From Bdellovibrionia bacterium (GTDB lineage: Bacteria; Bdellovibrionota; UBA1018): 15,906 nt of DNA. The notes under the pieces are model-generated. The model searched no databases. It saw only the letters and a list, made by a program, of their open reading frames with translations, and was not told where the DNA came from. The DNA lies in contig JBJMMA010000008.1 in assembly GCA_045805065.1 (NCBI GenBank), forward strand, positions 1 to 15,906. The letters run 5' to 3'. Position numbers and translations under genes: made by a program. Of this stretch, positions 1 to 15,238 are shown one piece after another (the first letter of the stretch is position 1; every line of letters begins with the position of its first letter).

Positions 1-148
1 CATCGCCAATCGGGGGCACGCCGCACTCGAATGGCATATTCTTTCGCCGAGTAGGTAGTTTGGGTCCAAGGATGTAGGACACAAGCAGAGCCAGACCGCC
101 AATGGTTGCACCTGCAAGCATCAGAATCAAAACGGGAATGTAAGCCAT
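1..148 (-). CDS. nuoA: NADH-quinone oxidoreductase subunit A, second and canonical-type copy (5' part only, runs off the window edge; absent from the ORF track)
   Basis: Manual translation from ATG at 148: MAYIPVLILMLAGATIGGLALLVSYILGPKLPTRRKNMPFECGVPPIGD. It shows a TM1 helix followed by the typical NuoA/ND3 'K..P(F/Y)ECG..P.G' loop. Confidence 0.92.
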   Translation of the reverse strand, partial: MAYIPVLILMLAGATIGGLALLVSYILGPKLPTRRKNMPFECGVPPIGD

Positions 149-181: not shown

Positions 182-1651
182 CTACCATAAAATAAAGCCG
201 AGCGACTTTCCGGCCCAGGTCAGAACCTGGTTTGCGAAGACGCCTGCGAGGACCATCGGCACTACTAATACGACCAGAAACATCCGCCTTCGAGAGTCGC
301 CCGTGACAGGCGTTTTTCCGGGCACCGAGAGATCGCCAATCAGGTTGAAAGAGAGTCGCGCGATCGCCACCGAAGAAAGAGTGAGCGAAAAAACTCCGAG
401 AGCAGCAAGCGCCAACCATTGATGGCGAACCGCTGCGCCGATCAAAGTAAACTTGGCGATAAAGCCCGGCATCGGTGGAATTCCAACCAAGCAAAGAAGG
501 AAAAGCACCAAACAAATACACTCGGGTACCGCACGAACGAGCATGCCTCTGAGATCAACGAGTCGGTCTGACCCCAGTTCTTCGTAAAAGAAGGACAGAA
601 CATAAAACGTTCCCATCAAGGCAAAGAGCTCAATGACCAGGTTGTAGAGGAGGGCCGCGACACCGACCTGATCCAAGACCAGGATGCCGAGCAGCATGAA
701 TCCGGTTTGAACGATCACAAGGCAGCTGACAAGTCTTTTGGCGCTGGTTTGGCGGTAAGCCAATAGAGAGCCGATCATCATCGACATACCGGCAATCAGG
801 CCAATGATTTTTGGCCACTCGAGTGATCCCAGGATTTGCCAACGGCCTGGCTCCAGGGCGGGTTGTGCGAAAACAGAGATGAAAAAACGAGTCGCTACAG
901 CGAAGCCCGCCGCCCGAGCTCCGACAGAAAGGAACGCGGCAGCTGGCGTTGGAGCACCTTCAAGGACGTCAGGCGTCCAAAAGTACATCGGGAAGGAGCC
1001 AACCTGAAAGCACAAGGCCAAGAGCGAGAGCATGAAGATCACCAGCATCGCCGTATGGCTGAGCGGGTGAGCTAGCAGGCTTTGGTGAATTTCATAAAGG
1101 TTCAGGCTTTGGGTGTGGCCAAACAAAAGAGCAAATCCATAAAGGAGCAGGCCCCCGGCGACGGCGCTGAAAACCATGTACTTTACGGCTGCCTCAACAG
1201 ATGGCATCGATTGTTTTCCATAGCCGGCCAGAAAATAGCCCAAGATATTGAGGCATTGCAGGGCCATGAAAATCAAAAGCAAATCGGCCGAAGATGCGGC
1301 CAGGCACATGGCAAGCGTTGAAGCCAGAATGAGAGCCATGAACTCCGTGTGACGACTTTCTGGGATTTGCTTACTATGGCGCGACGCAACGACGGCAAGC
1401 GCCGCAAGGACGATGAACAGGAGCTTGAAGAAAAGCGAGAGTCCGTCGACAGAAACAGTTCCGTGGAAAATCTGGGCGGGTCCGAGTCGGTACGTGGCCA
1501 GAGTCTGGATGAACGCCGCCCCCAACCCAAACAGGGCCGAAGCTTGCACAAGGCGATGCTGCTCTCCGTGGTACGTGATCTCTGAGATCACGACGAAGGC
1601 TAGCGTCACGGCCAAAATCAGTTCAGGTAGAATCAGCAGGAATTCATTCAC
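182..1651 (-). CDS. nuoN: NuoN-like antiporter-type subunit, divergent (489 aa, GTG start)
   Basis: Hydrophobic multi-TM protein with 'LPEL', 'SVEAAVKY', 'WTPDVLEGAPTP', 'QTSAKRL' and 'GIPPMPGFIAKF' motifs. Last gene after nuoM. Confidence 0.93.
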   Translation of the reverse strand: MNEFLLILPELILAVTLAFVVISEITYHGEQHRLVQASALFGLGAAFIQTLATYRLGPAQIFHGTVSVDGLSLFFKLLFIVLAALAVVASRHSKQIPESRHTEFMALILASTLAMCLAASSADLLLIFMALQCLNILGYFLAGYGKQSMPSVEAAVKYMVFSAVAGGLLLYGFALLFGHTQSLNLYEIHQSLLAHPLSHTAMLVIFMLSLLALCFQVGSFPMYFWTPDVLEGAPTPAAAFLSVGARAAGFAVATRFFISVFAQPALEPGRWQILGSLEWPKIIGLIAGMSMMIGSLLAYRQTSAKRLVSCLVIVQTGFMLLGILVLDQVGVAALLYNLVIELFALMGTFYVLSFFYEELGSDRLVDLRGMLVRAVPECICLVLFLLCLVGIPPMPGFIAKFTLIGAAVRHQWLALAALGVFSLTLSSVAIARLSFNLIGDLSVPGKTPVTGDSRRRMFLVVLVVPMVLAGVFANQVLTWAGKSLGFILW

Positions 1652-1666
1652 GGTTATTTCACCATC

Positions 1667-1694
1667 GCCTATTTGACCAGTGCCTATTTGACCA
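1667..1694. repeat. 13-bp direct repeat (GCCTATTTGACCA x2, 15-bp period) at the nuoM/nuoN junction
   Basis: Identical copies at 1667-1679 and 1682-1694. They duplicate the last codons and TAG stop of nuoM. Confidence 0.85.
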
Positions 1695-3228
1695 TTGAAA
1701 GAAGAGTCACAACCGTCGGCCTGACAAGCTCGATCAGTGGCTTAGGATAAATTCCAAAGAATAGAAGGCTTGCGACCAAAGGAAGCAGGTAGAGCTTTTC
1801 GCGAATCGTAAGATCCGTAAAGGTTGCCGCTCCGTTTTGTTCAGAGTCAGCAAGGCTTCCAAGGAACACATAGCGATACATCGTAAACAAGCAGTAGGCG
1901 GCCAAAAGTCCGGAGATGCCGGCCAGAAGCGCTGCCACAGGATAAGACGAGAAGGCTCCGATGATGATCAGTGAGCTTCCGACAAATCCGCCTGAGCCCG
2001 GGAACGCAAGCAGAGAGGCGACAACGACGCCTGCCACCACTGCAACCGTCGGGGCTTGAAGAGCAATTCCATCAAACACGCGACCTCCGCTTTCGGTGCG
2101 GAAATCCGTTGTGCCAGAGCGCTCGCCCAGGAGATTTGCAAAAAGTCCAAAGCCCGCAATCGCAAGTCCAAGAGCAAGCTTTTGATAAACAGCGCCGACA
2201 AAACCTGGCGAGCTCAAAGAGCCTACGCCCAAAAGTAGGATGCCCACCTGGCTGACGCAGATGAAGGCCAAGAGCTTTCTAAGGTTTCTTTGTGTGACTG
2301 CGCAAAGAGCGCCGACGAGAAGATTGACCGTTCCCACGATCACAATTGCGGGTGCAAAGTGGAGAAGCGTTTCAGGAAAGAGGGTGCAGGTCAGGCGTTC
2401 AAAGATATAGACCGCCACCGGGACCGATGCTGCGCCAAGCGCCACGACAACCGAGAGGGGGGCCTCTTCAGCGGCATGCATGAACCATCCATGAAGTGGC
2501 CAGATCGGAGCACGGAAGGCAAGTCCGATGGAAATCAAGACAAAGGCAACCACCGGAACGGATGCTTCGTAGCCCAGGAACTCAAACATCTTTCCGTTGA
2601 GCTTTCCGCCGGCAAGGTCATGAAGCGAGAAAGTGTGCGGATCGATCGAGTAGTAAATGAGGATGAGGGCTGCAAGAAGGAATGCGTTTCCCACGCAAGC
2701 GGTGACAATCGATCGGAACGCCGCGCTTTCGCGGTCGCGCGTGCCCCAGATCCCAATGAGGAAATAAAATGGGAATGCGGTGAGGGCCCAGAAGAAAAGC
2801 TGAAGAAAAAGATCCTGCGCACAGACTGCTCCAATGAATGCGGTTTGAAGAACCAGAAACAAACCATGCATTCCGCGAACGCCGGTGCGGCGGTTCCACT
2901 CAGCAGAGATGAGGATAGGAAAGAGAATCGATATCAAAAGCACGAGCGGAGCATTCAGCCCGTCGACTGCCATGTCGTAGTGAATGGCGTAAGAGCCGAT
3001 CCAGGCAAAGCTCTCGGTTGCCTGAGGATCTGCCGTTGCGGCCTGCATGGAGACCACGGTCAGGATTCCGCACAGACTTGAAAGGAGACTGGTCGCCAGC
3101 GCGACCCAGCGTCCTGCGGGACGGGATAAATGGTTCTCGCCACGAGTGGAGACATCAGGAAGAAAACCCTGAAGGACGGCCCCGACTACGGGAAGAATGA
3201 TCATCAAGCTAATCAAGTAATTAAACAC
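1684..3228 (-). CDS. nuoM: NuoM-like antiporter-type subunit, divergent (about 514 aa; probable GTG start at 3228 rather than 3264)
   Basis: 'VDGL', 'DLFL..FFW....PFYFLIGIWG', 'PLHGW....EAP', 'PG..GFVG', 'DLTIRE' and 'GIYP' motifs. GAGGGG precedes the GTG at 3228, 13 nt after the nuoL stop. Confidence 0.92.
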   Translation of the reverse strand: MFNYLISLMIILPVVGAVLQGFLPDVSTRGENHLSRPAGRWVALATSLLSSLCGILTVVSMQAATADPQATESFAWIGSYAIHYDMAVDGLNAPLVLLISILFPILISAEWNRRTGVRGMHGLFLVLQTAFIGAVCAQDLFLQLFFWALTAFPFYFLIGIWGTRDRESAAFRSIVTACVGNAFLLAALILIYYSIDPHTFSLHDLAGGKLNGKMFEFLGYEASVPVVAFVLISIGLAFRAPIWPLHGWFMHAAEEAPLSVVVALGAASVPVAVYIFERLTCTLFPETLLHFAPAIVIVGTVNLLVGALCAVTQRNLRKLLAFICVSQVGILLLGVGSLSSPGFVGAVYQKLALGLAIAGFGLFANLLGERSGTTDFRTESGGRVFDGIALQAPTVAVVAGVVVASLLAFPGSGGFVGSSLIIIGAFSSYPVAALLAGISGLLAAYCLFTMYRYVFLGSLADSEQNGAATFTDLTIREKLYLLPLVASLLFFGIYPKPLIELVRPTVVTLLSMVK

Positions 3229-3241
3229 TCTGCCCCTCGCT

Positions 3242-5197
3242 TTAGCGCAGCATTCCCGCGCCAAACAAATAATGAGCCAGGATCACAAGTCCTGAACCCA
3301 TTCCAAACAAAAGATACCATTGCACATCGCCGTTTTGGATGAGCTGAAGAAACTTGGCCGGAGAATCAATGCATCTGCGAACCAGATTTCTTCCATTCAA
3401 TGACACCGCGGTGTCGACTCGAACGATTCCGTTGGCTGTCGAGCGGATGACTGTCGTCAACGCTTTCGGGATCCAGTTTTGCCAAACGTTCTTTTCGATC
3501 AGGGAATCTGCCTGGCTTGTTGCCCAGGTCATTCCATCGATCGTGCGCTTTGCCAGTCGATCCACTCCGTAACCTGAAACAATTACGTGGTGGATCTTGG
3601 CAGCAAAGCCATCCCCTTCAGGCTGCATCGTTTGAAGCGATGCCCAGTAAGCTGCGCCCAGAGAAAGGATCAATGCGCCAATGTAGGCGCCAAAAACTGT
3701 AGCGGTCTCTTCCACGCCAGCTGTCGGAGCTCCGAAAAGGAGTTCCATTAAGGATGGCGCGACTTTGTCCGCGCCGCCTGGGAGCGCGCCTCCCAAGATA
3801 GCGCCGTTCCAAGCAACACCCAGGGAGAGAAGAATCAGGATCGTCGGAATCACAAGCGATGACCAATGAGGCATGCTTGCCACTTTGCGACGGCTCATCA
3901 TCCATCCAAGCTTCCAACCTAAGATAGAGAAGAGAGCAAGACTCGAGAGAGCAGCGGCAGCTTGAGCTGGATCATGCCAGGACTGCATGAGCCAATCGAT
4001 CTGACCACCTGCTGAGACAAATCCTGCAACACCGATCGCCGCGGCGATCCCAAAAAAGCCAGCGGTCTTCGCCCAAATCACGGTTCCGCCAGCTACGGTC
4101 TCATCATTGAGTGGCGCTTCGGCGGACTGAAGCAAAGATTGGCAGCAAGTAAAGGCTGAGACTCCGAGTCCCAGGCCAACAATTAGGGCAAGGGCTGCCT
4201 GTGGAGAAGCCAGGCAGAGGATTGCGGCGGCAAGCGTTGCGCCTGAGGAGAACCAGGCTCCAAGGGATGCTTCCCACTCGGTTTGGAACATTCCCGAGAT
4301 GACTGCCAAAAGAGTTGAAGCAAGGAGCATCCAGCCAAAGACAGAAAAGACCATCTGGTCGCCCAAGCTCATTTGAAGGCGAATCAGAATTCCAAATGTC
4401 GCCCAGGCAGGAAACACCTGAGCCATCGTGATCCGAATCCAAGGAGAGGTTCTTCCTGGGCTAACGGTCCAAGAGAGCAATGGGAAGGGCTGGAGTTGAA
4501 CCAGAAGTCCTGCAAGCAGCAACACGGATCCCACAGTTTCGGAAAGTGATGCGCCTTGAGCAGCCGTGATCCAGTGCTGCGCTTTGGACCAAATGAGCGG
4601 CGCGCGACCTCCCGCGAGAGCACAAGCTCCCAGAATGGAGAGAATCAAACCAAAGGCGCGCTCTCTTCCAAAGCGGATCGCAAGTTCGGATTCCTCTTCA
4701 GCGTCCCAGCGAGAACCCAAGGAGAGAAAGCCCGCGAAGATCACAAGCGATAGCCCCCCAAGAGCAAGCCATGGGGTCAAGGCAAGCCAGCTCAGTGCGC
4801 ATCCGGCTGCTGCAAAAGCAATCGCACTATGCGTGCGCTCGGGGCGAGGCTGACTTGGAAGAACGCGCACGCCGGCAAGAAGGAGGGCGGCAAAGATGAC
4901 GCCTAAGCCCGCGAGCACAAGTCCTTGCGGGTCTTGAAGGATTCCGGCGGGAACGGCGCCTTCGCGGTCCACGGGCCAGATCCAGCCGCGAAGCCAGACA
5001 TGTGCGCGCGATGCTTCTTCAACAAGTCCGTTTCCGGCAAAGATCAGTGCGCCCGCCAATACGGCCAGAAAGAGACCCACTAACCAGTCGCCGTTGCGGG
5101 GAAGCTTTCGTCCCCAAGCGAGCGTGATTACGCCGCTTAACGCAAGAAGCGCGATACTGAGAACTAAGATGAACGGTGCGCTCTGGTTTTGGATCAT
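3242..5197 (-). CDS. nuoL: Highly divergent NuoL-like membrane subunit (651 aa)
   Basis: Lies between nuoK and nuoM and has NuoL-like length and many TM segments. Relics 'PFPLLSW' and 'QTE' remain, plus a long hydrophilic/amphipathic stretch and a C-terminal 'IQNGDVQWY'+TM matching the NuoL lateral helix and last TM. The core motifs are largely eroded. Confidence 0.8.
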   Translation of the reverse strand: MIQNQSAPFILVLSIALLALSGVITLAWGRKLPRNGDWLVGLFLAVLAGALIFAGNGLVEEASRAHVWLRGWIWPVDREGAVPAGILQDPQGLVLAGLGVIFAALLLAGVRVLPSQPRPERTHSAIAFAAAGCALSWLALTPWLALGGLSLVIFAGFLSLGSRWDAEEESELAIRFGRERAFGLILSILGACALAGGRAPLIWSKAQHWITAAQGASLSETVGSVLLLAGLLVQLQPFPLLSWTVSPGRTSPWIRITMAQVFPAWATFGILIRLQMSLGDQMVFSVFGWMLLASTLLAVISGMFQTEWEASLGAWFSSGATLAAAILCLASPQAALALIVGLGLGVSAFTCCQSLLQSAEAPLNDETVAGGTVIWAKTAGFFGIAAAIGVAGFVSAGGQIDWLMQSWHDPAQAAAALSSLALFSILGWKLGWMMSRRKVASMPHWSSLVIPTILILLSLGVAWNGAILGGALPGGADKVAPSLMELLFGAPTAGVEETATVFGAYIGALILSLGAAYWASLQTMQPEGDGFAAKIHHVIVSGYGVDRLAKRTIDGMTWATSQADSLIEKNVWQNWIPKALTTVIRSTANGIVRVDTAVSLNGRNLVRRCIDSPAKFLQLIQNGDVQWYLLFGMGSGLVILAHYLFGAGMLR

Positions 5198-5206
5198 GGG
5201 CTCTGC

Positions 5207-5539
5207 TCAGTTTTTCAGCGACTTGAGGTCGCTCATTTCAATTTTGTTTTTTAGGTAAAATAAACGAATGGCCAGGGCGAATCCTGCCACAAGCTGCGCA
5301 ATACCGCCCACAGCGATGAAAACGCCACCAGCGTGACCGCTCGCGCGCACAACGCCGTCTTGAATAGCGCCGGCAGAGCCGGCTTGAGTTGCGCCAGCAA
5401 AGATTCCTGCGACAACAAACATCATGGTCGCGCCCATGATCATGAGCTGAAGTCCGATCAAAAGACCCAGGAGGGTTCTTCTCATGACGACGCAAACAAG
5501 ACCCATGGCTCCAATCAGGCCAGCTACGGTCATTAACAT
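5207..5539 (-). CDS. nuoK: NuoK-like subunit, divergent (110 aa)
   Basis: Three TM helices, the 'RR.L' loop and the C-terminal 'DLKSLK'. GGAGGTG RBS; overlaps the end of nuoJ. Confidence 0.9.
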   Translation of the reverse strand: MLMTVAGLIGAMGLVCVVMRRTLLGLLIGLQLMIMGATMMFVVAGIFAGATQAGSAGAIQDGVVRASGHAGGVFIAVGGIAQLVAGFALAIRLFYLKNKIEMSDLKSLKN

Positions 5540-6096
5540 GACTCACCTCCCGATTGGGTCTCTGACTTGTTGTCGCCTGACTCTCGGTCACCAGACTCCG
5601 GACGCGCGACAACTCCGCCGCCTACCAAGATCAAAAACAAGGTGAGCGCCAGGACTTCCAGAGAGATGATGTGGTTTTCAACCATGACTCTGCCCAAAGA
5701 AGCGAGATCGTTGCCAGCAGCTGGAGCAGGGATTGGACCGCCTGGGAGATCGGCGGAGCCAAGATAAATAATCGCCGCAAAAGCCGCACCGATTGCGGTT
5801 GCAATCAATGTCGAGACAATGACTTTACGGTTGAGCATCTGACGGAGCGAGCGTTTTTCGCGTTGCTGGGATTCGTATTCGCCAAACATGACCGCAAAGA
5901 AGAAAAGCGCAATGGCAACCAGAGTCGAGATGATCCACTGAAGAACGGCAAGAGTCTCAGCGCCGACGGTAAGAAAGATGCATCCCATGGCAAGGCCTGC
6001 GATCCAGAGCGAGAGAATCGCCTGTCTCATTCCCTGAACCACCGTTGCAGTCAGAGTCGCACCTAAAGCAATTGCTGAAAAGACCCAGCTGATCAT
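5533..6096 (-). CDS. nuoJ: NuoJ-like subunit, divergent (187 aa)
   Basis: 'GAE.LA..Q' and 'LG......I..LEV....L....VG.....R' patterns, five hydrophobic segments, TGATG overlap with nuoI. Confidence 0.88.
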   Translation of the reverse strand: MISWVFSAIALGATLTATVVQGMRQAILSLWIAGLAMGCIFLTVGAETLAVLQWIISTLVAIALFFFAVMFGEYESQQREKRSLRQMLNRKVIVSTLIATAIGAAFAAIIYLGSADLPGGPIPAPAAGNDLASLGRVMVENHIISLEVLALTLFLILVGGGVVARPESGDRESGDNKSETQSGGESC

Positions 6097-6626
6097 CAGT
6101 CGCTATCTCCCATTTCAGCCAGTCTGCGCATTTCGGCCCACTTAGCTTGCTGCTCCGGCGTGACTCTTCCACGGCCAAAGCTTGCGACCATTTCTGGAAG
6201 CTCATAAGCCGCGTTCTCATAACGGCGGGTGTGAGTCAGAGACACAGGCTGACAGGCTTCCACGCAAAGTCCGCAAAAAATGCACTTGGAATAATCAATG
6301 TCAAAAATGGAAACCCAGTCTTTGCCAACGTCCGTGCCGGGTTGAACTTCAATCTTGATGCATTGGGTGGGGCAAACCTTTTCGCAGGCGCCACAACCCG
6401 TGCACTTATCGATGTCATTAAAAAGAAGTCCCCGGGAGCGCGGCGGAAGATCATCCGCCGTCTTCGAGGAAATCGGATCGGGGTATTGCTCGGTGACTTC
6501 CTTTCGGAGATCTCCTGCACTCAAAAGATACGGCAGCGCCGTCATGAAAGAGCCCGACACTGAGCGAACGCCCAGCAGGATTTCCCGAAAGTAGGCTCGA
6601 ATCGTCGAAAAAACAGACTGATTCAC
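6096..6626 (-). CDS. nuoI: NuoI-like 2x[4Fe-4S] subunit (about 176 aa; probable GTG start at 6626 rather than 6755)
   Basis: 'VTEQYP', 'R.RG', CTGCGACEKVCP and CIFCGLCVEAC motifs. GGAGG lies 8 nt before a GTG that overlaps the nuoH stop (GTGA). Confidence 0.95.
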   Translation of the reverse strand: MNQSVFSTIRAYFREILLGVRSVSGSFMTALPYLLSAGDLRKEVTEQYPDPISSKTADDLPPRSRGLLFNDIDKCTGCGACEKVCPTQCIKIEVQPGTDVGKDWVSIFDIDYSKCIFCGLCVEACQPVSLTHTRRYENAAYELPEMVASFGRGRVTPEQQAKWAEMRRLAEMGDSD

Positions 6627-7702
6627 AACATCGCCCTCCACCCTGCCCACAGGGCCGCACCAATCAGAGCTCCCAGCGAGAATGGACTCAGAACCTTCCA
6701 TGAGAAGTCCGTCGTTTGATCCACTCTTGCGCGTGGGTTTACTCTGGCAATCCAAATCAGAATCATCATGAGGCCGTAGGTCTTAGCCAACAGCCAGACA
6801 AGCTCAATGATCTCACGAAGCAAATGCTCGCTGCCATCGGTCACGCGCTCCACCAGCCACGACGGCAAGGTCCATGCGCCCAAGAAAAGAACGACCGTGA
6901 TCTGAGACCAAAGAAAAAATCCGTAGAATCGACCCAGGCGGAACAGGCTCAGTCTTCTTCCAGAGAGATCCGAAGAGACGCCGCCATGAAGATCCATCAC
7001 GGAGAGACCACCATCCATCGGCGGAACGTTCATGATGATGAGTCCGCTGGCGATGAAAACGATCATCGCGATGAATTGAAAAGGATTGGTCGTCGCAGTC
7101 CAATGAAGCGGTGATGCGCCTTGAACCTCCGCGAACGACGCCCAACGAAAGCTTCCGGAGCGGATGCCTGCGCAAAGCACACAGATCAGCGCGGGAAAAG
7201 CGCCAGCAAGGGCTTGAGCCGCAAGCCTGACTCCGCCAAACCACCCACTGACCGTGCCCTGGCTGAAACCCATGAGCATGGTGCCCAGAGCAAGAACGAG
7301 GGCGGACCAAAACGGAAGAAACGCGCTCATGTCCGTGTTGACAAGAATGGCTGCAGATCCCAGCGGCATGACGGCAACGGTTGAGTAGAGTGCCATCGTA
7401 TGGACGCCAAGCCAGAGCGTTTCATGCCAGTTCCATTCGCTGGAAGGCTCTTTCTGCAAAAACTTTAGAAGATCAGCCAGTGGCTGAAGGAGTCCCCAAG
7501 GACCCGAACGATTTGGGCCAACGCGTGCCTGAAAATCCGCGCTTAACTTGCGATCCACGAATGAGACCACTGCACCGCTGGGAAGAATGACGATTGTATA
7601 AATGAAGAAGATCCCAATCGTCGCAACAATCCATAGAGGCGTTCCCGAAGGAAGGCCGATCGTGGATTTCCAGATTTCAAGGGTTTGAGCGAGCGTCATC
7701 AT
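6623..7702 (-). CDS. nuoH: NuoH-like membrane subunit, divergent (359 aa)
   Basis: 'RK.....Q.RVGPNR.GP.GLLQP.AD.LK...KE', 'LFLG.W' and 'PR.R.DQ.....WK' motifs. ATGA overlap with nuoD. Confidence 0.95.
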   Translation of the reverse strand: MMTLAQTLEIWKSTIGLPSGTPLWIVATIGIFFIYTIVILPSGAVVSFVDRKLSADFQARVGPNRSGPWGLLQPLADLLKFLQKEPSSEWNWHETLWLGVHTMALYSTVAVMPLGSAAILVNTDMSAFLPFWSALVLALGTMLMGFSQGTVSGWFGGVRLAAQALAGAFPALICVLCAGIRSGSFRWASFAEVQGASPLHWTATTNPFQFIAMIVFIASGLIIMNVPPMDGGLSVMDLHGGVSSDLSGRRLSLFRLGRFYGFFLWSQITVVLFLGAWTLPSWLVERVTDGSEHLLREIIELVWLLAKTYGLMMILIWIARVNPRARVDQTTDFSWKVLSPFSLGALIGAALWAGWRAML

Positions 7703-8883
7703 CGGTCAGCCTCCGCAATGCTCAGATCGAGGCTTGCAAGTAGAACAGGAAGGTCTTCGATTCTGATTCCAACCAGAACTTCCGGAAGCGCCATCAGAGC
7801 CGCAGTCGTTGGCGTATGAAATTGGATGCGAGAAGGCTTTGGTCCGCCCTCCGAGATCACATGACAAGAAATCATTCCGCGTGAGCTCTCAACGCGCGTG
7901 TAAGCTTCGCCGGATGGTACTTTGATCCGATAGTCTTCAGCGCCTGCCTCGGGGAGAATCTGGCGGTTCAAGAACGCGCCTGACGGAATTGTCTCAGCAA
8001 CATGCTTGAGGATCTCAAGACTTTCCGTCATCTCAAGAAGCTTGAGGAGGAAGCGGTCGTGAGAATCACCTAAGACGCCGTCTGTTCCGCGTCCGACTGG
8101 AACGCGGAAATCGAGGCTTTTATAGCTGAGATAAGGATGCGCCTTGCGAACATCAAAGGTGACGCCTGCAGCACGCGCATTGGAGCCTGTAATTCCAAAG
8201 CGGTTCACAAGCTCAGCGGAGAGAATGCCCATCTTGGCCGTGCGCTTGAGGAACGTATTATTGAAAGTCAGAAGATCATTATATTCCTTGATCCGGATTC
8301 GAATCAGATCGCAGACCTCAAGGACTCGTTCGATAAATCCTTCGGTCACGTCCGCGCTCACGCCGCCAAATCTCAAAAAGTTAATCGAGAATCTTGCGCC
8401 GGTCAGAAGCTCAAAGAGGTCGAGAATGCGCTCTCGATCGCGCAACACGTAGTGAACAAGCGTTTCAGCGCCCACGGCCTTTGAAACATTGACCAGATAA
8501 AGCATGTGCGCGGAGAGGCGCGTCAGCTCTGACAAAATCACACGAATGCTGACCGCACGCGCAGGAACATCAATTCCAGCGATCTCCTCAACGGCCAGAC
8601 AAAGCGCAAGCTCGCCGTAAATGGCGGCCTCTGGATCCAGGTGATCCGAGTAAGCAATCGATGCGTTCCAGTCGTGCTTTTCAATGGCCTTCTCAAGTCC
8701 TTTGTGGAGAAAGCCCGTTTCCACGCTGCCCGAAACGATGATCTCGCCATCCAAAACAAGGCGCAGCTTCATGGGCGCAGGAAGCGATGAGTGATAAGGG
8801 CCAATCTCCCAGCCGATGAGGTCCGTGCGAAGGCACTCAGAGCGTGAACGATGACTTTCGTTTTTTGGCGTCGGGTGCATCAT
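7699..8883 (-). CDS. nuoD: NuoD-like (49 kDa family) subunit lacking the quinone-binding residues (394 aa)
   Basis: 'LDGE', 'G.LH.GLEK', 'LAVE...GI.VP.RA', 'EL.R...H', 'GEAY.RVE..RG' and C-terminal 'D....E.DR'. No NiFe CxxC motifs. Confidence 0.95.
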   Translation of the reverse strand: MMHPTPKNESHRSRSECLRTDLIGWEIGPYHSSLPAPMKLRLVLDGEIIVSGSVETGFLHKGLEKAIEKHDWNASIAYSDHLDPEAAIYGELALCLAVEEIAGIDVPARAVSIRVILSELTRLSAHMLYLVNVSKAVGAETLVHYVLRDRERILDLFELLTGARFSINFLRFGGVSADVTEGFIERVLEVCDLIRIRIKEYNDLLTFNNTFLKRTAKMGILSAELVNRFGITGSNARAAGVTFDVRKAHPYLSYKSLDFRVPVGRGTDGVLGDSHDRFLLKLLEMTESLEILKHVAETIPSGAFLNRQILPEAGAEDYRIKVPSGEAYTRVESSRGMISCHVISEGGPKPSRIQFHTPTTAALMALPEVLVGIRIEDLPVLLASLDLSIAEADR

Positions 8884-9362
8884 TTCGCACTAGCTCCAAC
8901 GGAATAGGATTTGCGCATCGGAAACTCAGAGTCATCCGCTAAGAGCGTTCGGCACGTCTCAATCGTCTCTCCGGATGCATTTTTGAACCGGATTCCAAAA
9001 AGCTGAGCAGCCTCGTTTTCCAACGGTGCAGCCATTGGCCAGACGTCGCAAACAGAGGCGAGCTCTACGGCCTCTTTTTCTGACGTAATGATAACAGAGC
9101 TTCGCATCACGAGCTGCGCCTGGGTTTCACGCGAGCGCAAAAACCAGGAGACAACCAGTGAGTCGCCCACTTCCGCTACGGAAAGATTTTCAAGCCATTG
9201 AAGCTTGAGAGTCGGCTCTTCACTCACGGCCTTTGCAAACGCGTGAACCGCTGTGGATTCGATCCAGACCGAAAGAAGATCCGATCGTCCAAAGCGGCCG
9301 GACTCAAGGACTTTGCCCGGAGCAGCCTTTTCAAGTTTTGAGAGTATCGCGTTCGCTTCCAC
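8880..9362 (-). CDS. nuoC: NuoC-like (30 kDa family) subunit, divergent (about 160 aa; probable GTG start at 9362)
   Basis: 'S...VWP.A...E.E....FGIRF' and 'FPMRK.Y' match the NuoC C-terminal signature. AGGAG precedes GTG at 9362. Lies between nuoB and nuoD. Confidence 0.88.
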   Translation of the reverse strand: MEANAILSKLEKAAPGKVLESGRFGRSDLLSVWIESTAVHAFAKAVSEEPTLKLQWLENLSVAEVGDSLVVSWFLRSRETQAQLVMRSSVIITSEKEAVELASVCDVWPMAAPLENEAAQLFGIRFKNASGETIETCRTLLADDSEFPMRKSYSVGASAK

Positions 9363-9801
9363 GGATCTTCTCCTGAAGGGCAATCAGGCCGTTCATGATG
9401 GCTTCAGGGCGTGGGGGGCAGCCTGGAACGTAAACATCCACAGGGACCACTTCGTGCGCGCCTGAAAGGGTTGAGTAGGAATAGTCGGGTCCGAAAAGTC
9501 CGCCGCAGTTTGCGCACGATCCGACCGCAAGAACGTATTTAGGCGAGAGCATGGAATCATAGAGCTCGCGCAGATGAGGCGCGGCCTTTTTGGAAACCAT
9601 TCCGCTGATGATTAACAAATCCGCTTGTCTTGCATCGACCTGAGGAAGGCATCCAAAGCGCTCCATGTCGTAGCGCGCCCCCATCGTGTTGAGAACTTCA
9701 TCCGCGCAGCAGCCACTGCCGGTTGAGATGTACCAAAGCGATTGGGAGCGAGCCCATTTCAATGCTTTGCCAAGAGTAGAGGTGTAAAAAGAACCAGCCA
9801 T
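9331..9801 (-). CDS. nuoB: NuoB-like (20 kDa family) N2-cluster subunit (156 aa)
   Basis: 'WAR..SLW', tandem CC, 'RYD.ERFG', 'RQADL', 'GSCA..GG' and 'VPVDVYVPGCPPRPEA'. Confidence 0.97.
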   Translation of the reverse strand: MAGSFYTSTLGKALKWARSQSLWYISTGSGCCADEVLNTMGARYDMERFGCLPQVDARQADLLIISGMVSKKAAPHLRELYDSMLSPKYVLAVGSCANCGGLFGPDYSYSTLSGAHEVVPVDVYVPGCPPRPEAIMNGLIALQEKIRGSERDTLKT

Positions 9802-9804
9802 CGC

Positions 9805-10215
9805 TTACCCATTCCCCTTAGTTTTCTGAAATGACTGCACCCAACTCAGATCACCTTTACGGGAGGAGTACAAAAGTCCAAGTCCGCAGAAAGTCGCGAG
9901 CGATACGATCGCAATCAGGCATCGAAGAAATGTTCCCCGATCCGTGGCTTGCTGAAGCATCCCTGTGCATGGAATCAAAATAAGCGCGATTGCCATCAGG
10001 ATCAGGGCCGCGTTAACGCCCAGGAAAAATCGCGCATTGATCTTTCTTCTCAAGAGCTCCGCGGTGACGGCGTTTTGTACGGGCTTCTTTTGGGCTGAGG
10101 CTTTGCCGCGCTCCGCTGAGACCAAATAGGAGAAAAGGCCAAGCAAGGCAGGAACGCCGAGTGCAAGCAGCGCAGAAAGGAACACAACGTAGTAAACATC
10201 CCAGCTGCTTGGCAT
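9805..10215 (-). CDS. nuoA: NuoA-like subunit, divergent (136 aa)
   Basis: Three TM helices, 'RFFL' at the start of TM2 and C-terminal 'Y..RKGDLSW'. First gene, directly before nuoB. Lacks the ECG and FD.E motifs. Confidence 0.85.
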   Translation of the reverse strand: MPSSWDVYYVVFLSALLALGVPALLGLFSYLVSAERGKASAQKKPVQNAVTAELLRRKINARFFLGVNAALILMAIALILIPCTGMLQQATDRGTFLRCLIAIVSLATFCGLGLLYSSRKGDLSWVQSFQKTKGNG

Positions 10216-10244
10216 GACTCAATGAACGCCGCAGCGTTCCTCCT
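10216..10244 (-). promoter_or_regulatory. Ribosome-binding region of the first nuoA: AGGAGG separated from the ATG by a hairpin
   Basis: Minus strand reads AGGAG-GAACGC-TGCG-GCGTTC-ATTGAGTC-ATG. SD at 10244-10239, 6-bp stem spanning 10239-10224, then 8 nt to the ATG. Confidence 0.55.
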
Positions 10245-10317
10245 ATGATGGTTTCAGGGAAGGATAAATTTTAATCTGTTTTTTTATGAATTATTAAGGT
10301 TTTGAAGCCTCGCGAAA

Positions 10318-10346
10318 AGGTTACTGAAGTAGAATAGGGGTGTCAA
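10318..10346 (-). promoter_or_regulatory. Putative sigma70 promoter for the nuo-like operon
   Basis: Minus strand TTGACA (10346-10341), 17-nt spacer, TAACCT (10323-10318), in an AT-rich divergent intergenic region. Confidence 0.7.
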
Positions 10347-10369
10347 GTTTCGTGGATACTGATTATTGT

Positions 10370-10400
10370 TTAAGTCGAGGCGGCCTCGCCGCTACGCTTA
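10370..10400 (+). repeat. REP-like intergenic repeat, copy 1
   Basis: TTAAGTCGAGGCGGCCTCGCCGCTACGCTTA. 30/31 identical to the reverse complement of 15140-15170; internal GCGGC-N3-GCCGC palindrome. Confidence 0.85.
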
Positions 10401-10428
10401 TGTTGAGACACATCGCCAGACATATCAA

Positions 10429-13400
10429 ATGACATCTAGCGGGAGCTCCATCATCTGCCGCTCGCTCGACGAGCTTAACTCTCGACATGCAGACTCATCG
10501 AGTCACGAGCCAGTGCGCGTTCATGGAGCAACGCCATCCGCACAAGCACTTCTTGTTCTTCGTGTCATTGAAGCACGTCTTGCCCAGAGCCGACTTGATC
10601 CTATTGTCATTCTTTGTGCGGATGATGACGTTGCAAGTGAGTTTGCCGGGGATGTTGAATCTCTTGCGGCAGCGCTGGATTTACCATCGCCTTGCATCCT
10701 CCAATTTCCAACTTGGGAGCAATCTCCGTATAGCCCGATTGCTCCTTCGATCCGAACACGTTTAGCCAGAGTCGCTGCGTTAAGCACTCTAGCGAGCGGC
10801 GCTGGCGGCCGCGTTCCGGTTCTGTTCACCACGATCGCTGCCCTGAGCCAAGCTACTCTTCCACATGAAGAGTTTATTCGTTATTCGCTGAAATTGGAGA
10901 CAGGTCAAAGCGTTGAGTCCCGTGAAAGACTCATTCAGCGTCTTCTTGAGGCGGGATACCTTCGTGTTGATCCCGTCGAGGATCCGGGAAACTTTGCGGT
11001 CCGAGGCGATATCATCGATGTCTATCCGCCCGATCGGGATCAGCCTTTAAGAATTGAGCTTTTCGGGGACGAGATTGAGAGGATCCGCGAGTTTGATCCA
11101 GCCACGCAAAGAACGGCGTCGCCTGAGGTACCCGATCTTCAAGTAGTCACCGTTCCTCCTGCACGCGAGGTTCTGATCAATTCCGTCACGACATCTCGCG
11201 TGCGTGAGAAAGTCAAAGCTCGCGCCGATGACCGCGGGGTTCCAAGACCCGTTCGTGATCCGGTGATGGCCTCCATTCATAGCGGAAACTATCCGGATCA
11301 TAGCGACGCCTGGGCCCCCTTAGCCTACGAGAACCCGGCCACGCTGCTCGATTATCTCAATGATGGTGCAACAACGTTTTGGGTCGATGAGCTCAGCATT
11401 CTTCAAAGATGGGATGAGCATCTGGATGAGCAAAAGCGCCTCTCCAGCGAGTCCGACCACCCTGAGCTGATTTTGCCTGCGGTAGAGGAACTCTATCAAT
11501 GGAGTCCTTCGGCCGAAAAGAAGGTTCGCAGCCAGAGCATCCTTTATCTGGATCGCGTTCAGCTGGCAGATCTTGAGTCTCTTCCTCAAGGAGATGAAGA
11601 CAAAGAAGCCGCAGCACTCACAGGTCCCAAAGAGCCTGAAGTCTCATCGCGCCACACCGTTTTTGTTCGTGGCAATCAGGATCTTGCCAGGGGAACCAAG
11701 CACTCGTTAGGTGAGCTTGAGGCAAAGTTTAAGCTTTGGGTGAAGCAAGGGTTTAAGATCATCACTCTAGCCTCAACGCAAAGCCAGCTTGAGCGCATCC
11801 GCTATCTTTTGGAAGAGCATCAGATCACAACTCATGCCGAGGCTGCACCAGGGCGCGTGGCTCTTAAGATCGGAAGCTTGTCTGCCGGGTTTCGTTGGCC
11901 CGCCGAAGGTCTTGTCATCCTGGTTGAAGACGAGATCCTGGGAGCAAAACATAAAAAGAAGCAGCGCCGGGCAAGCACCGCACAAAGCGGATCGGCCGCA
12001 AAGGACTGGTCGGGTCTTCAGGCACTTTCTGATCTTGCAGTAGGTGATGCCATTGTTCACCTGGACCATGGCATTGGAAAGTATCAGGGGCTTGTGCGCT
12101 TGAGCCTCTCGGGCGCACCGAGTGACTTCCTTCAACTCGAGTACGCCAACAAAGATAAGCTTTATCTTCCTGTTTATCGCCTGAACGTCATTCAAAAGTA
12201 CTCGGGCGGGGCAGACGCCGTCAGTTTGGATCGACTGGGAAGTCAGACCTTTGCCCGGACAAAAGAGAAGGTTCGCGATGCCGTTCGGAAAATCGCAATC
12301 GATCTCGTCAAACTTTACGCCGAAAGAAAAATCAGGCCGGGACACGTCTTTTCGGGTCGCGACTCGCTTTTTCAGGAATTTGAAGCGCGCTTTCCGTTTG
12401 ATGAGACCCCGGATCAGCTCAAGGCCATTGATCAGGTTCTGGATGACATGCAATCCGGTCGCGTGATGGATCGCCTGATCTGCGGTGATGTGGGCTATGG
12501 AAAGACTGAAGTCGCCATTCGCGCAGCCTTCCGAGCCGTTTCAGATGGAAAACAAGTTGTCGTCCTGGTTCCCACCACGGTTTTGGCTTTTCAACATGAG
12601 CAGAACTTCAAAGCTCGGATGAAAGATTATCCAATCAATATTGAATCCGTCTCGCGCTTCAAAACAGCGAAAGAACAAAAGACCATTCTTGAGGGCGTCG
12701 CCAAAGGCAAGATCGACATCATCATCGGCACCCACAGGCTTTTGTCCAAGGACGTCTCCTTTAATGATCTGGGACTCGTGATCGTGGACGAGGAGCATCG
12801 CTTTGGCGTGGAACATAAAGAGCGCCTCAAAACCCTTAGAACCAATATCCATGTCGTCACATTGACGGCGACTCCAATTCCACGCACGCTTCACATGGCG
12901 CTCTCTGGACTTCGTGACATCAGCCTGATTAATACGCCTCCTGTGGACCGTCTCCCGATTCGCACCTATGTCTCAAAACTTGATGATGCCTTGGTTCAAA
13001 AGGCGATCAACTATGAGCTCAATCGTGGCGGCCAGGTCTTTGTTCTTCATAACCGGGTTCAATCCATTCATGAGCTGGCAAAGCGAATCAAAGAGCTCGT
13101 GCCTACGGCAAATATTGGAGTGGGTCATGGTCAGATGGGCGAGGGCGAGCTTGAAAAGACCATGCTCGATTTCTACCAGAAGCGGACCAATGTTCTGGTC
13201 AGTACAACCATCATTGAATCCGGCCTCGACGTCCCATCGGCCAATACCATCATTATCAATCGCGCCGACTCCCTGGGGCTTGCTCAGCTTTATCAGATTC
13301 GCGGACGAGTCGGGCGCGGACAGCAGCGCGCTTATGCTTACCTTCTGATCCCTGCCGAGGGGGCAGTGACTGAGGATGCAAAACGACGTCTTGAGGTCAT

Positions 13401-14061
13401 TCAGCGCTTCGTTGAGCTTGGAAGTGGCTTTAGCATTGCCTCCCATGACTTGGAGATTCGCGGAGGGGGAGACCTTCTGGGTCCGCAGCAATCCGGGCAT
13501 ATTGCTGCCGTGGGCTTTGACCTTTATACAGAGATTCTTGAAGAAGCCATTCAAGAGATTGAGGGTTCCCCACAAACAGCGCAGACTCAGACCCGTCGCG
13601 AGCCTGAGATCAAACTGCCATTTGCTGCCTTCTTGGGAGAGGAATACGTTCCTGACATCCATCAGCGCCTCTCCTTATATAGGCGGTTTTCTGCAACGAC
13701 TCAGGAAGGTGAGCTCGATGCCCTGGAAGAGGAACTCAGGGATCGGTTTGGCCCGCTTCCACCGGAGGCTCAAAACCTGCTTTGGATGATCCGACTCAAA
13801 CAGCTTCTGGTTCGTAGCGGTATTGATAGCCTAACCGCTGGGCCTGAAAAAGTATCGATGATCATCGGCTCGGGCAGCGCCGTTGATCCGGTAAAAGCAA
13901 TCTCGGTTGTGGCTGGCGATCGCACGCGCTATCAGCTCACGCCGGACCCGTCCGGGCCAGGACATACCAAGCTTGTTGCCAAGGTCCCAACAGGCACACT
14001 GCGGGACCTCTATTTTGCCATCGAGTCGCTTTTGAAAAAACTGACCGGCATGGCCGCCTGA
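10429..14061 (+). CDS. mfd: Transcription-repair coupling factor Mfd (start uncertain; ATG 10429 preferred over TTG 10366)
   Basis: UvrB-like N-terminal region ('FAVRGDIIDVYP'), RID ('VHLDHGIGKY', 'DKLYLPV'), SF2 motifs GDVGYGKT, DEEH, TATPIPRT and QIRGRVGR, the TRG 'DLEIRGGG' motif and a TRCF C-terminal domain. Confidence 0.98.
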   Translation: MTSSGSSIICRSLDELNSRHADSSSHEPVRVHGATPSAQALLVLRVIEARLAQSRLDPIVILCADDDVASEFAGDVESLAAALDLPSPCILQFPTWEQSPYSPIAPSIRTRLARVAALSTLASGAGGRVPVLFTTIAALSQATLPHEEFIRYSLKLETGQSVESRERLIQRLLEAGYLRVDPVEDPGNFAVRGDIIDVYPPDRDQPLRIELFGDEIERIREFDPATQRTASPEVPDLQVVTVPPAREVLINSVTTSRVREKVKARADDRGVPRPVRDPVMASIHSGNYPDHSDAWAPLAYENPATLLDYLNDGATTFWVDELSILQRWDEHLDEQKRLSSESDHPELILPAVEELYQWSPSAEKKVRSQSILYLDRVQLADLESLPQGDEDKEAAALTGPKEPEVSSRHTVFVRGNQDLARGTKHSLGELEAKFKLWVKQGFKIITLASTQSQLERIRYLLEEHQITTHAEAAPGRVALKIGSLSAGFRWPAEGLVILVEDEILGAKHKKKQRRASTAQSGSAAKDWSGLQALSDLAVGDAIVHLDHGIGKYQGLVRLSLSGAPSDFLQLEYANKDKLYLPVYRLNVIQKYSGGADAVSLDRLGSQTFARTKEKVRDAVRKIAIDLVKLYAERKIRPGHVFSGRDSLFQEFEARFPFDETPDQLKAIDQVLDDMQSGRVMDRLICGDVGYGKTEVAIRAAFRAVSDGKQVVVLVPTTVLAFQHEQNFKARMKDYPINIESVSRFKTAKEQKTILEGVAKGKIDIIIGTHRLLSKDVSFNDLGLVIVDEEHRFGVEHKERLKTLRTNIHVVTLTATPIPRTLHMALSGLRDISLINTPPVDRLPIRTYVSKLDDALVQKAINYELNRGGQVFVLHNRVQSIHELAKRIKELVPTANIGVGHGQMGEGELEKTMLDFYQKRTNVLVSTTIIESGLDVPSANTIIINRADSLGLAQLYQIRGRVGRGQQRAYAYLLIPAEGAVTEDAKRRLEVIQRFVELGSGFSIASHDLEIRGGGDLLGPQQSGHIAAVGFDLYTEILEEAIQEIEGSPQTAQTQTRREPEIKLPFAAFLGEEYVPDIHQRLSLYRRFSATTQEGELDALEEELRDRFGPLPPEAQNLLWMIRLKQLLVRSGIDSLTAGPEKVSMIIGSGSAVDPVKAISVVAGDRTRYQLTPDPSGPGHTKLVAKVPTGTLRDLYFAIESLLKKLTGMAA

Positions 14062-14064
14062 TTT

Positions 14065-14088
14065 GTCGAGGCGGCCATGCCGCTACGC
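14065..14088 (+). repeat. REP-like intergenic repeat, copy 2
   Basis: GTCGAGGCGGCCATGCCGCTACGC. 22/24 identical to the core of copy 1, with both differences in the hairpin loop. Starts 3 nt after the mfd stop. Confidence 0.82.
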
Positions 14089-14112
14089 CTATACCTATGA
14101 TGCTCAACTGGG

Positions 14113-14140
14113 CAAAATCGGTCGCGGCGGCGACCTTTTG
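14113..14140 (+). terminator. Possible intrinsic terminator after mfd
   Basis: GGTCGC-GGCG-GCGACC hairpin followed by TTTTG and preceded by CAAAA. The U-tract is short. Confidence 0.5.
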
Positions 14141-14184
14141 ACTGTCACAGACTCAAGGTCACTTTGCGCGAGTGCTGGTTGCAT

Positions 14185-14212
14185 TTGCCAAGTTTAAAAA
14201 AGCTGCTACGCT
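14185..14212 (+). promoter_or_regulatory. Putative sigma70 promoter for the PPIase gene
   Basis: TTGCCA-N16-TACGCT with an extended -10 TG, followed by GAGG and the ATG at 14237. Confidence 0.5.
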
Positions 14213-14236
14213 TTAAGGATACGTGAGGAAAAGTTT

Positions 14237-15070
14237 ATGAAACGCGCACAATGCTATGTGACTCTTTTTGGCTTGTTGGGGGGCTTGATCGCCGCCGGCA
14301 CCTCTGTTGCCGCCACCGAAGTCGCTAAAGTCAACGGCAAGTCTATTACACTTGAAGAACTCAATAAGAAATATCAACAGAGCCTTCAATTCTACCAGCC
14401 AAAGACGCCGACCAAAAAAGGCCTCTTGGATGACTTAGTCAAGCGCGAGCTTGGAATTCAGGAAGCCAAGAAGCTTGGTCTTGATAAGGACCCGGAAGTC
14501 ATTGAAGCGATGAACACCGTTCTGTTCAATGCTCTGGTTACCAAGAAGCTCTCCAAAGAATTCGAAGAGATCAACGTCTCTGATTCTGATGCGAAGGATT
14601 ACTATTCAAAGAATCCTGAGATCCGTACCAGCCACATCTTCGTAGCCGCTCCATTCAACAGCACGCCTGACGAAGACAAAAAGGCACGGGCACGCATCCA
14701 AAAGATTTACGACGAGCATATTCGTAACGGAAAAGAGAACTTTGCCGAAGTGGCTCAGCGCTTTTCCGAAGGCGCCGCAGCCCCCATGGGTGGCGACGTC
14801 GATTACAAGATGCGCGGCATGATTGATCCTGCTTACTACGATGCCGCACTTGCTCTGCGCTCCCCAGGTCGGGTCAGCGGACTTGTTCGCTCCCAAGCCG
14901 GATATCATATCATCAAGCTCACGGCCGTGAAGAGCTGGGATGACGTGGATCACGCAGCCGTAAAGCGTCTGGTGATCGAAGAGCGCCAACGCCATGCTTT
15001 CGACAAGTTGATGAATCAGCTCCGCTCGAACGCAAAGGTGATGGTCCATAACGAGCTCGTTAAAGAATAA
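14237..15070 (+). CDS. Secreted PpiC/parvulin-type peptidyl-prolyl cis-trans isomerase (PrsA/SurA-like foldase, 277 aa)
   Basis: Signal peptide ('...SVA-A'), 'VAKVNGKSIT', 'EAKKLGLDKDP', and rotamase motifs 'SHIFV', 'FAEVAQRFSE', 'GGDV' and 'GYHIIKL'. Confidence 0.93.
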   Translation: MKRAQCYVTLFGLLGGLIAAGTSVAATEVAKVNGKSITLEELNKKYQQSLQFYQPKTPTKKGLLDDLVKRELGIQEAKKLGLDKDPEVIEAMNTVLFNALVTKKLSKEFEEINVSDSDAKDYYSKNPEIRTSHIFVAAPFNSTPDEDKKARARIQKIYDEHIRNGKENFAEVAQRFSEGAAAPMGGDVDYKMRGMIDPAYYDAALALRSPGRVSGLVRSQAGYHIIKLTAVKSWDDVDHAAVKRLVIEERQRHAFDKLMNQLRSNAKVMVHNELVKE

Positions 15071-15098
15071 CTGACTCTAACCAGTCGGATTCCTGTTT

Positions 15099-15170: not shown

Positions 15171-15238
15171 CGCTTCGCCCCAGGGCCCCGTATGTCCAGT
15201 GGACAGTCGAGCACAGGATGTGCGAGAAGGTATAGGTG

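Follow-up and report, generated by a model that had tools for sequence, protein, structure and literature searches.

The 15,906-nucleotide stretch of DNA examined here (the window; positions 1 to 15,906 of the forward strand of contig JBJMMA010000008.1, assembly GCA_045805065.1, Bdellovibrionia bacterium) carries genes for a complex-I-like assembly that is distinct from the canonical complex I of the same genome, and we focus on one of these, nuoD', which encodes a homologue of the 49-kDa subunit NuoD. The gene lies in a minus-strand operon of 11 genes, nuoA'B'C'D'H'I'J'K'L'M'N' (the primed operon). The three ligands of the quinone site (His38, Tyr87, and Asp139 in Nqo4 of Thermus thermophilus) are all absent from NuoD', and key charged residues are missing from the coupling subunits as well. 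We firmly show that the NuoD' complex cannot be a conventional quinone-reducing proton pump, and we show that the primed operon is no relic but a set of genes that is being maintained. With slightly better than even confidence, we propose that it encodes a non-pumping iron-sulfur (Fe-S) electron-transfer complex that works beside canonical complex I.

The quinone site of NuoD'

Translation of positions 7699-8883 bore out the motif readings and codon positions of the initial annotation, with P35 encoded by cct at 8781-8779, P84 at 8634-8632, A136 at 8478-8476, and residues 134-139 reading SKAVGA. A phmmer search of all PDB chains returned T. thermophilus Nqo4 (2fug_4) as the top match of NuoD' (E 1.1e-69, 238.5 bits). 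Residues 15-394 of NuoD' align to residues 18-409 of Nqo4, and ahead of residue 140 the alignment is free of gaps with a constant offset of 3; in this stretch the equivalences that had been proposed (P35=His38, P84=Tyr87, A136=Asp139, H81=Arg84, and the retained H31=His34) all hold. In the equivalent columns, the canonical NuoD paralogue that this genome encodes on contig C105 reads GPTHPAMHGALR, DRLNY, and VDLGA. The roles that His38, Tyr87, and Asp139 play in the quinone site are described in the available text of PMC4758237, which cites Baradaran et al. 2013.

NuoD' is recognizably a NuoD protein but a divergent one. It scores about 226-228 bits against Pfam PF00346 versus 357 bits for the canonical NuoD on C105, and it falls under all of the NCBIfam NuoD equivalog cut-offs (at best 329 versus 360 bits), with the FpoD model scoring it at 300 bits versus 329 for the best NuoD model. 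A search of a protein atlas with NuoD' returned generic NuoD/FpoD clusters only. The AlphaFold2 (AF2) model of NuoD' has a predicted local distance difference test score (pLDDT) of 85.8 and resembles the 49-kDa chains of solved complex I structures with template modeling scores (TM-scores) of 0.86-0.90. The protein has four Cys residues (17, 95, 191, and 340), none of which is in a CxxC motif, and the N- and C-terminal CxxC NiFe-binding motifs of group 4 membrane-bound [NiFe] hydrogenases are not present in the translation. The lowest-scoring PDB chains matched by NuoD' in the phmmer search were hydrogenases (MbhL at 136 bits and HycE at 99 bits).

Conservation of the NuoD' signature

A word-indexed search identified 426 relatives of NuoD', and the best 120 of these (clusters, 58-89% identity) were aligned with the query using MAFFT to give a set of 121 sequences. 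The GPYH...P and DHLDP signature pointed out in the initial annotation is conserved in this set, as P35 and P84 are each found in 117 of the 121 sequences. Ala occupies position 136 in 87 of them and Ser in another 26, and position 135 is Arg in 61 and Lys in 48. The surrounding residues are also well kept: Y30 (119/121), H31 (115/121), P37 (108/121), D80 and D83 (both 121/121), and E85 (119/121), while position 81 is His in 104 and Arg in 17 sequences. In a smaller NuoD' alignment of 27 sequences (A1), G28, P29, Y30, and P35 are invariant, and the remodeled loops are among the best conserved stretches within the close family. Because the signature is conserved across the family, it is the result of neither chance nor a sequencing error. 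The conserved substitutions support the earlier suggestion that the site is unable to carry out canonical quinone chemistry, as do the missing charges of the coupling subunits and the presence of a canonical complex I encoded immediately downstream (both discussed below).

NuoD proteins were examined more widely by searching 1.84 billion representatives exhaustively with phmmer, and the 150 proteins listed among the matches make 151 sequences with the query. All three ligands are present in 63 of these sequences, none in 50, and one or two in 30, and the remaining 8 are partial at these columns. The motifs GP[FY]xxxLPGPx[KR] and D[RH][LI]DPE are common to many of the triad-less representatives. 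The L-P-G-P loop is similar to a loop that reads L-[KHI]-E-P in hydrogenase-like representatives.

Two candidate replacements for the site were considered and rejected. Tyr30, His31, His81, and Tyr89, which had been named as residues that could take the place of the quinone ligands, are not conserved when the 121-sequence alignment and the 50 triad-less representatives are considered: position 89, Tyr in NuoD' of the window, is Phe in 106 of the 121 sequences, and among the 50 representatives position 30 has Tyr in 13 cases and Phe in 12, position 31 is His in 23, and position 81 is Arg in 29 and His in 10. The other candidate was a new metal site formed by Cys340/His341 with Tyr30/His31. Cys340 is invariant in alignment A1, but position 340 is Val in f2, f6, f7, and one f1 member (G073) and variable in f3 and f4 (f1-f7 are families in the order and class to which the window belongs; see below).

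Partner subunits of the primed operon

The primed operon contains none of the genes of the NADH-oxidizing N-module (nuoE, nuoF, and nuoG), which in this genome are found only in the downstream canonical operon. The positions of its genes and the motifs of NuoD' are collected in Table 1. Pfam matches were obtained for the B', C', D', H', I', J', K', M', and N' proteins and for neither A' nor L'. For comparisons within the family, sets were assembled from the loci whose best tblastn match occupies a single open frame that runs on the same strand as the operon, which gave 33-50 of 50 related loci per subunit; these 50 loci were drawn from a species-representative genome set. Positions in the membrane subunits were assigned from alignments with PDB chains and with the canonical paralogue encoded on C105.

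Table 1. Coordinates of the features discussed in the text (positions in the window; TM, transmembrane helix)
Feature	Positions	Strand	Description
nuoD'	7699..8883	minus	49-kDa/NuoD homologue, protein P0001, 394 aa (translation)
beta1-beta2 loop of NuoD', codons 28-39 (GPYHSSLPAPMK)	8767..8802	minus	Pro35 for His38, His31 for His34
DHLDPE of NuoD', codons 80-85	8629..8646	minus	Pro84 for Tyr87, His81 for Arg84
KAVGA of NuoD', codons 135-139	8467..8481	minus	Ala136 for Asp139; Lys/Arg newly gained at position 135
nuoA'	9805..10215	minus	NuoA homologue without FECG motif and without the invariant Asp/Glu pair
nuoB'	9331..9801	minus	all four cluster-N2 Cys kept, including the tandem CC; PSST/NuoB chains 152 bits (phmmer)
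nuoC'	8880..9383	minus	30-kDa homologue, short and divergent; Pfam PF00329 49.5 bits
nuoH'	6623..7702	minus	Pfam PF00146; TM5-6 loop and channel glutamates replaced
nuoI'	6096..6755	minus	two CxxCxxCxxxC motifs (clusters N6a/N6b) kept
nuoJ'	5533..6096	minus	Pfam PF00499 41 bits; family alignment
nuoK'	5207..5539	minus	both membrane glutamates read Gln (Q31, Q82)
nuoL'	3242..5197	minus	NuoL fold with long lateral helix; no detectable sequence family
nuoM'	1684..3264	minus	Glu absent from TM5 and TM12; Arg for Lys in TM7 and Pro for Lys in TM8
nuoN'	182..1651	minus	TM5 Glu to Gln, TM7 Lys to Gln; TM8 and TM12 lysines kept
canonical nuoA, N-terminus	1..148	minus	begins 33 nt beyond the nuoN' stop codon; rest of the protein encoded at the start of contig C105
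mfd	10366..14061	plus	divergently upstream of the primed operon

The Fe-S ligands are retained throughout. All 12 of the Fe-S Cys columns are at least 90% conserved (50 NuoB' and 34 NuoI' sequences), and both proteins retain their Cys motifs in families f2 and f6 too. The residues associated with coupling are not. NuoK' reads LIGLQLM where E. coli NuoK reads LIGLEIM (phmmer), and among 43 sequences Q31, in the column of the TM2 Glu, is conserved in at least 90% and Q82, in the column of the TM3 Glu, in at least 60%, with the canonical paralogue having Glu. In NuoH', alignment to NdhA and to the canonical paralogue shows that SGLIIMNVPPMDGGLSVMDLHGGVSSDLSG replaces the 28-residue canonical loop, that GAFP stands for canonical SYEL, and that GRF stands for canonical AEY, such that the acidic loop and the channel glutamates are both absent. 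The columns of canonical LLFDVEA read hydrophobic in NuoA', and the Asp/Glu pair is absent (hhalign). In NuoM', all four of the key Lys/Glu residues are gone, with the replacing TM7 Arg and TM8 Pro at least 90% conserved in 34 sequences, while in NuoN' two of the four are gone (TM5 and TM7). NuoL' has Gln at the column of the TM7 Lys, in a weak alignment. Scores fall as well: NuoH' (135 versus 305 bits) and NuoN' (244 versus 333 bits) are both below NCBIfam curated cut-offs, and the Proton_antipo_M model has no match in NuoL' versus 296 bits for the canonical NuoL of the same genome.

The assignment of the two subunits that lack a Pfam match was made by more sensitive comparisons. NuoA' has no Pfam or NCBIfam match, and its family profile (A4) matched the canonical NuoA profile (A5) in hhalign with a probability of 95.3% and an E of 2e-8. 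NuoL' has no match by sequence in Pfam, NCBIfam, or the PDB (phmmer, and a 14-sequence profile against the PDB), and hhalign gave a weak match that is restricted to the C-terminal residues 516-646 with a probability of 35%. Its AF2 model (pLDDT 77) includes a 76-residue helix at 545-620, and the top 50 Foldseek matches of this model are all NuoL/ND5/NdhF proteins (E down to 6.4e-15, TM-scores of 0.60-0.67, and 11-17% identity). Judged from the model, NuoL' is an extreme case, with a predicted fold that is kept and a sequence that has decayed. The best PDB matches of NuoH' and NuoN' are NdhA and NdhB, respectively. The true start of nuoI' is probably further downstream than that of its longest frame, which begins with TTG at 6755 and shares 133 nt with nuoH' (6623-6755), because family conservation begins only around residue 47.

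Selection and tandem arrangement

All 11 primed frames are open in the window, and open frames are found in the 50 related loci. The ratio of nonsynonymous to synonymous substitution rates (dN/dS) between the window and its closest relative (L003) ranges from 0.025 to 0.117 for the A' to K' genes, and the value for nuoD' (0.039) equals that of the neighboring housekeeping gene mfd (0.039). The primed proteins diverge faster than the canonical ones. NuoD' is 47, 37, and 36% identical to that of the window in genomes G065, G008, and G094, respectively, versus 79, 79, and 64% for canonical NuoD, and by such comparisons the primed complex evolves about twice as fast as canonical complex I. This divergence is uneven across the subunits: in families f5, f2, and f6 the identity to the window is 47-51% for NuoB', 44-47% for NuoI', and 36-47% for NuoD', and the L', K', J', and A' proteins are at most 30% identical or were undetected. 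The Fe-S subunits are thus the best conserved across families.

The primed operon is followed by a canonical complex I operon. The translation of window positions 1-148 (MAYIPVLIL...PFECGVPPIGD) matches the canonical NuoA of locus L023, and frame 3 of C105 continues canonical NuoA with ARQRFSVRFY... to a stop. Because one NuoA spans the first 148 positions of the window and the start of C105, the two operons are in tandem in this genome; the assembly is broken inside canonical nuoA, where the window contig and C105 abut. The canonical NuoD on C105 sits in the order nuoB-C-D-E-F-G-H-I-J-K-L-M-N. The same arrangement is found elsewhere, as canonical nuoB lies 340-670 nt downstream of nuoN' on the same strand in all 35 of the 35 loci that have at least 1 kb of sequence beyond nuoN', and in L023 the canonical nuoA, B, C, and D were confirmed by Pfam.

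Distribution and origin

All 50 of the related loci are titled as Bdellovibrionota lineages, and the named matches of a profile built from distant NuoD' members are also all Bdellovibrionota. One orthologue (P0089 / L017) is named 'Methylotenera sp.' by NCBI; this is probably a relabeled or mis-binned record rather than a case from outside the phylum. A NuoD match was found in 118 of the 121 genomes sampled from the phylum, with many having two. Twenty of these NuoD genes were typed, along with five more from f3, f4, and f7, to give 25 typed genes. Among the 20, triad-less copies occur in f1, f2, and f5, the f6 copy has Tyr87 without His38 or Asp139, and the second NuoD copies of f9, f11, f12, f15, and f21 are canonical; the second copies in genomes G120 and G009 sit in small nuoBCDI clusters. 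The five f3, f4, and f7 genomes have a further diverged NuoD' that is located 7-11 kb from canonical nuoD, is open over 335-373 aa, and scores 36-129 bits with Pfam (36-47 bits in f3); Tyr87 is absent in f3 and f4 and kept in f7. Judged from the 25 typed genes, the stripped operon is found only in families f1-f7 and does not extend across the whole phylum.

A quick IQ-TREE search was carried out on 85 NuoD rows. NuoD' of the window and the canonical copy from its genome were combined with the 20 typed genes and 7 of the 120 family members, and to these were added 20 representatives without the triad, 32 further representatives, and 4 outgroups that are hydrogenase-like, with the remaining representatives left out. 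The 31 triad-less rows form one clade with a Shimodaira-Hasegawa-like approximate likelihood ratio test (SH-aLRT) value of 99, and the sister of this clade is a group of 4 rows that keep Tyr87 (support 88). Together they fall close to the root end of the tree and are separate from the two canonical NuoD types of Bdellovibrionota, although this basal position is uncertain because the branches are long. A recent duplication of either canonical type as the origin of NuoD' is unsupported by the tree. The initial annotation described the whole quinone-reduction triad as lost. The absence of all three residues stands, but as a statement of history "lost" may be too strong because the sister lineages f6 and f7 have Tyr87 but neither His38 nor Asp139 and the clade lies near the base of the NuoD tree. 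Based on these sequences, His38 and Asp139 may never have been acquired, with Tyr87 alone being lost later.

The near-complete f15 genome G009 has two separate nuoB-C-D-I clusters, L074 (C1:2262000-2281900) and L075 (C1:2555000-2574900). One of its NuoD proteins is canonical, and the other has Lys at His38 and Phe at Tyr87 and forms a long branch inside the canonical type-A clade. The second looks like an independent case of quinone-site erosion.

Possible functions of the primed complex

In the mechanism that we favor, NuoD' would be the Q-module core of a second complete complex-I-like assembly that is without the energy-converting chemistry. The primed complex would assemble in the membrane, electrons would enter at NuoI' from ferredoxin or from the NuoEFG proteins of the downstream operon and move to cluster N2, and N2 would pass them on, not to a quinone bound by Tyr/His but to some other partner, with no protons being pumped. 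The Fe-S subunits are the best conserved part of the complex, which points toward the relay of electrons as the retained function. Several points weigh against this proposal. The conserved Fe-S ligands could be needed for folding alone, a role played by off-pathway clusters in some subunits of complex I. The residues of the old quinone pocket vary by family (LPAP/DPE in f1, MPVP/IPE in f2, and GLGP/DY in f6), and a single specific site for a new substrate would not be expected to show such differences. With dS at 1-3, near saturation, the dN/dS values are rough. Finally, the key residues of the membrane subunits carry names from the complex I literature, and their positions were set by alignment and not by structure.

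The same Fe-S conservation has to be weighed against the alternative that the whole primed complex is a pseudoenzyme without turnover and acts as a structural or regulatory partner of canonical complex I (as a scaffold, in membrane organization, or in assembly), in which case the clusters would be retained only because the Q-module fold needs them. The absence of all classes of catalytic residues beyond the Fe-S ligands, the replacements at former functional positions that vary by family as expected of disused positions, the tandem link to the canonical operon in every one of the 35 loci, and the roughly twofold faster evolution are all consistent with such a partner. However, the 12 Cys ligands are conserved in all sampled families and the Fe-S subunits are the slowest to evolve, which fits a working relay, and the remodeled NuoD' loops are among the best conserved stretches of the close family; we consider a complex without turnover to be unlikely, though it is the main alternative. 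It is less likely still that quinone continues to be reduced by other residues, either uncoupled or at a shallower site, which would make the complex a non-pumping NADH/ferredoxin:quinone oxidoreductase. N2 and the NuoB'/D'/H' architecture are kept, and in the available text of PMC4758237 short-chain quinones stay active after mutation of the Tyr87 equivalent, but the three ligands are jointly absent, the loop of NuoH that forms the cavity is rewritten, and the failure of the candidate substitute Tyr and His residues to be conserved makes this outcome less likely. Additionally, an 11-subunit machine would presumably be costly for a job that is done by the single-subunit NDH-2. A decaying relic, with the genes becoming pseudogenes, is disfavored and highly improbable: the wide loss of catalytic residues, the fast evolution, and the low Pfam scores of NuoD' in f3 could be read in this way, but the 11 frames are open with dN/dS of 0.03-0.12, synteny is kept in the 50 loci and across f1-f7, and the new family-specific motifs are conserved.

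A further alternative concerns the origin of the primed complex, namely that the clade never had the full triad and descends from an early Fpo-like or ancestral 11-subunit lineage with Tyr87 only, with Tyr87 then lost in f1-f5 and the pump residues lost secondarily. The triad-less clade of 31 rows and its sister branch of 4 rows near the base of the NuoD tree are in line with this history, as are the resemblance of the L-P-G-P loop to the hydrogenase-like loop and the closeness of the FpoD and best NuoD model scores of NuoD'. The state seen in f6 and f7 (Tyr87 without His38 and Asp139) is the same as that given for Fpo in the available text of PMC4758237. Against it, the branches are 0.8-1.8 changes per site in a quick tree search and may have drawn the clade toward the base by long-branch attraction, the tandem-Cys motif of N2 is present in NuoB', and the best PDB matches of NuoD' are true NuoD/NdhH chains. 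We regard this origin as possible but well short of probable. A broader reading, to which we give a little less credence, is that the entire 11-subunit complex is a pseudoenzyme, either silent or electron-carrying only, that selection has maintained throughout a whole bacterial order or class to partner the active complex I of the same gene cluster, and that was dismantled stepwise; His38 and Asp139 would be absent throughout, Tyr87 lost later, and the pump charges removed in a lineage-specific manner.

Relation to known systems

NuoD' has the same fold as NuoD/Nqo4/49-kDa of complex I, finds its best sequence match there, and is encoded together with the corresponding partners in an identical gene order (A B C D H I J K L M N), with NuoB' keeping the tandem-Cys N2 motif and NuoI' the two 4Fe-4S motifs. 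Unlike complex I (Nuo-14), the primed complex lacks His38/Tyr87/Asp139, nuoEFG in the operon, and the charges of the E-channel and the antiporters. In gene content it resembles NUO11 and the cyanobacterial and plastid NDH-1, which also comprise eleven genes (A-D and H-N) with no N-module. NUO11/NDH-1 enzymes are known proton pumps. The alignment shows that NdhH has His at His38 and Tyr at Tyr87 whereas NuoD' has neither, and the pump residues are absent from the primed complex. To our knowledge, every well-studied relative of complex I couples redox chemistry at the NuoB/NuoD/NuoH interface to ion translocation via conserved charged residues. In the primed complex nearly all of the coupling residues have been removed, including the sites mutated in mechanistic studies, and the fold, the Fe-S wire, and purifying selection remain. 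Either the complex I architecture has a second use (with a non-quinone acceptor, as a redox valve, or as a structural partner) or large respiratory complexes can persist as pseudoenzymes. The primed complex also provides a natural control for the complex I mechanism, as it identifies positions that are free to change while the assembly stays under selection. The FG-1 and FG-2 genome records (L023 and L019) are not labeled as metagenome bins and may be cultures, which would make experiments possible.

NuoD proteins without His38/Tyr87/Asp139 have been described in Sulfolobus, Nautiliales, and Desulfurobacteriales, and Fpo with Tyr87 only, in the available text of Degli Esposti 2015 (PMC4758237), where a non-quinone acceptor was proposed for such ligand-less homologues. 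In these organisms some or all of the quinone ligands are thus naturally absent from a Nuo-type 49-kDa subunit, as in NuoD'. The complex there is the sole Nuo-type complex and, as far as the available text of that paper goes, is not reported without pump residues, whereas the primed complex exists next to a canonical enzyme as a second copy, and charges have been stripped from the whole of its membrane arm. The Ehr, Mbx, and MBS complexes offer another comparison. The available text of PMC6349859 describes Ehr complexes without NiFe ligands, and the MBS chain 6u8y_L matches NuoD' at E 5.5e-56 (phmmer, PDB). As far as the sources available for these complexes describe them, the large-subunit homologue has neither NiFe cysteines nor quinone ligands, the Fe-S relay ends at a NuoB homologue, and the acceptor is not quinone or is not established. 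They are, however, thought in the same sources to translocate ions through Mrp-type subunits, whereas the primed complex has Nuo-type A, J, and K subunits, an L subunit with a lateral helix, and a tandem-Cys NuoB and is without the ion-translocating residues. Two nuo clusters in Bdellovibrionota are noted in PMC13147790, the available text of which has no residue analysis, and the system is not covered in the available text of the COGNAT paper (PMC5700660) or of Spero et al. (PMC4453560). We found no published description of a charge-stripped complex I paralogue in a search of the literature that had supplements outside its scope.

Neighboring genes

Scans for promoters and terminators gave little information: the former identified one weak promoter-like site upstream of nuoA' versus 0.6 expected, and the latter identified one terminator-like site, which lies inside the coding sequence of nuoN'. 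The mfd gene is divergently upstream of the primed operon in 42 of the 50 loci, and the sequence of the remaining 8 loci starts at the operon or within it. In the downstream canonical operon, the NuoG of this genome (L077 4477-5889, C105) is short at 471 aa and comprises the N-terminal Fe-S domains and a fragment only of the molybdopterin-like domain. In the window, mfd is followed by two SurA/PPIase-like genes (10366-15904 with mfd, plus strand).

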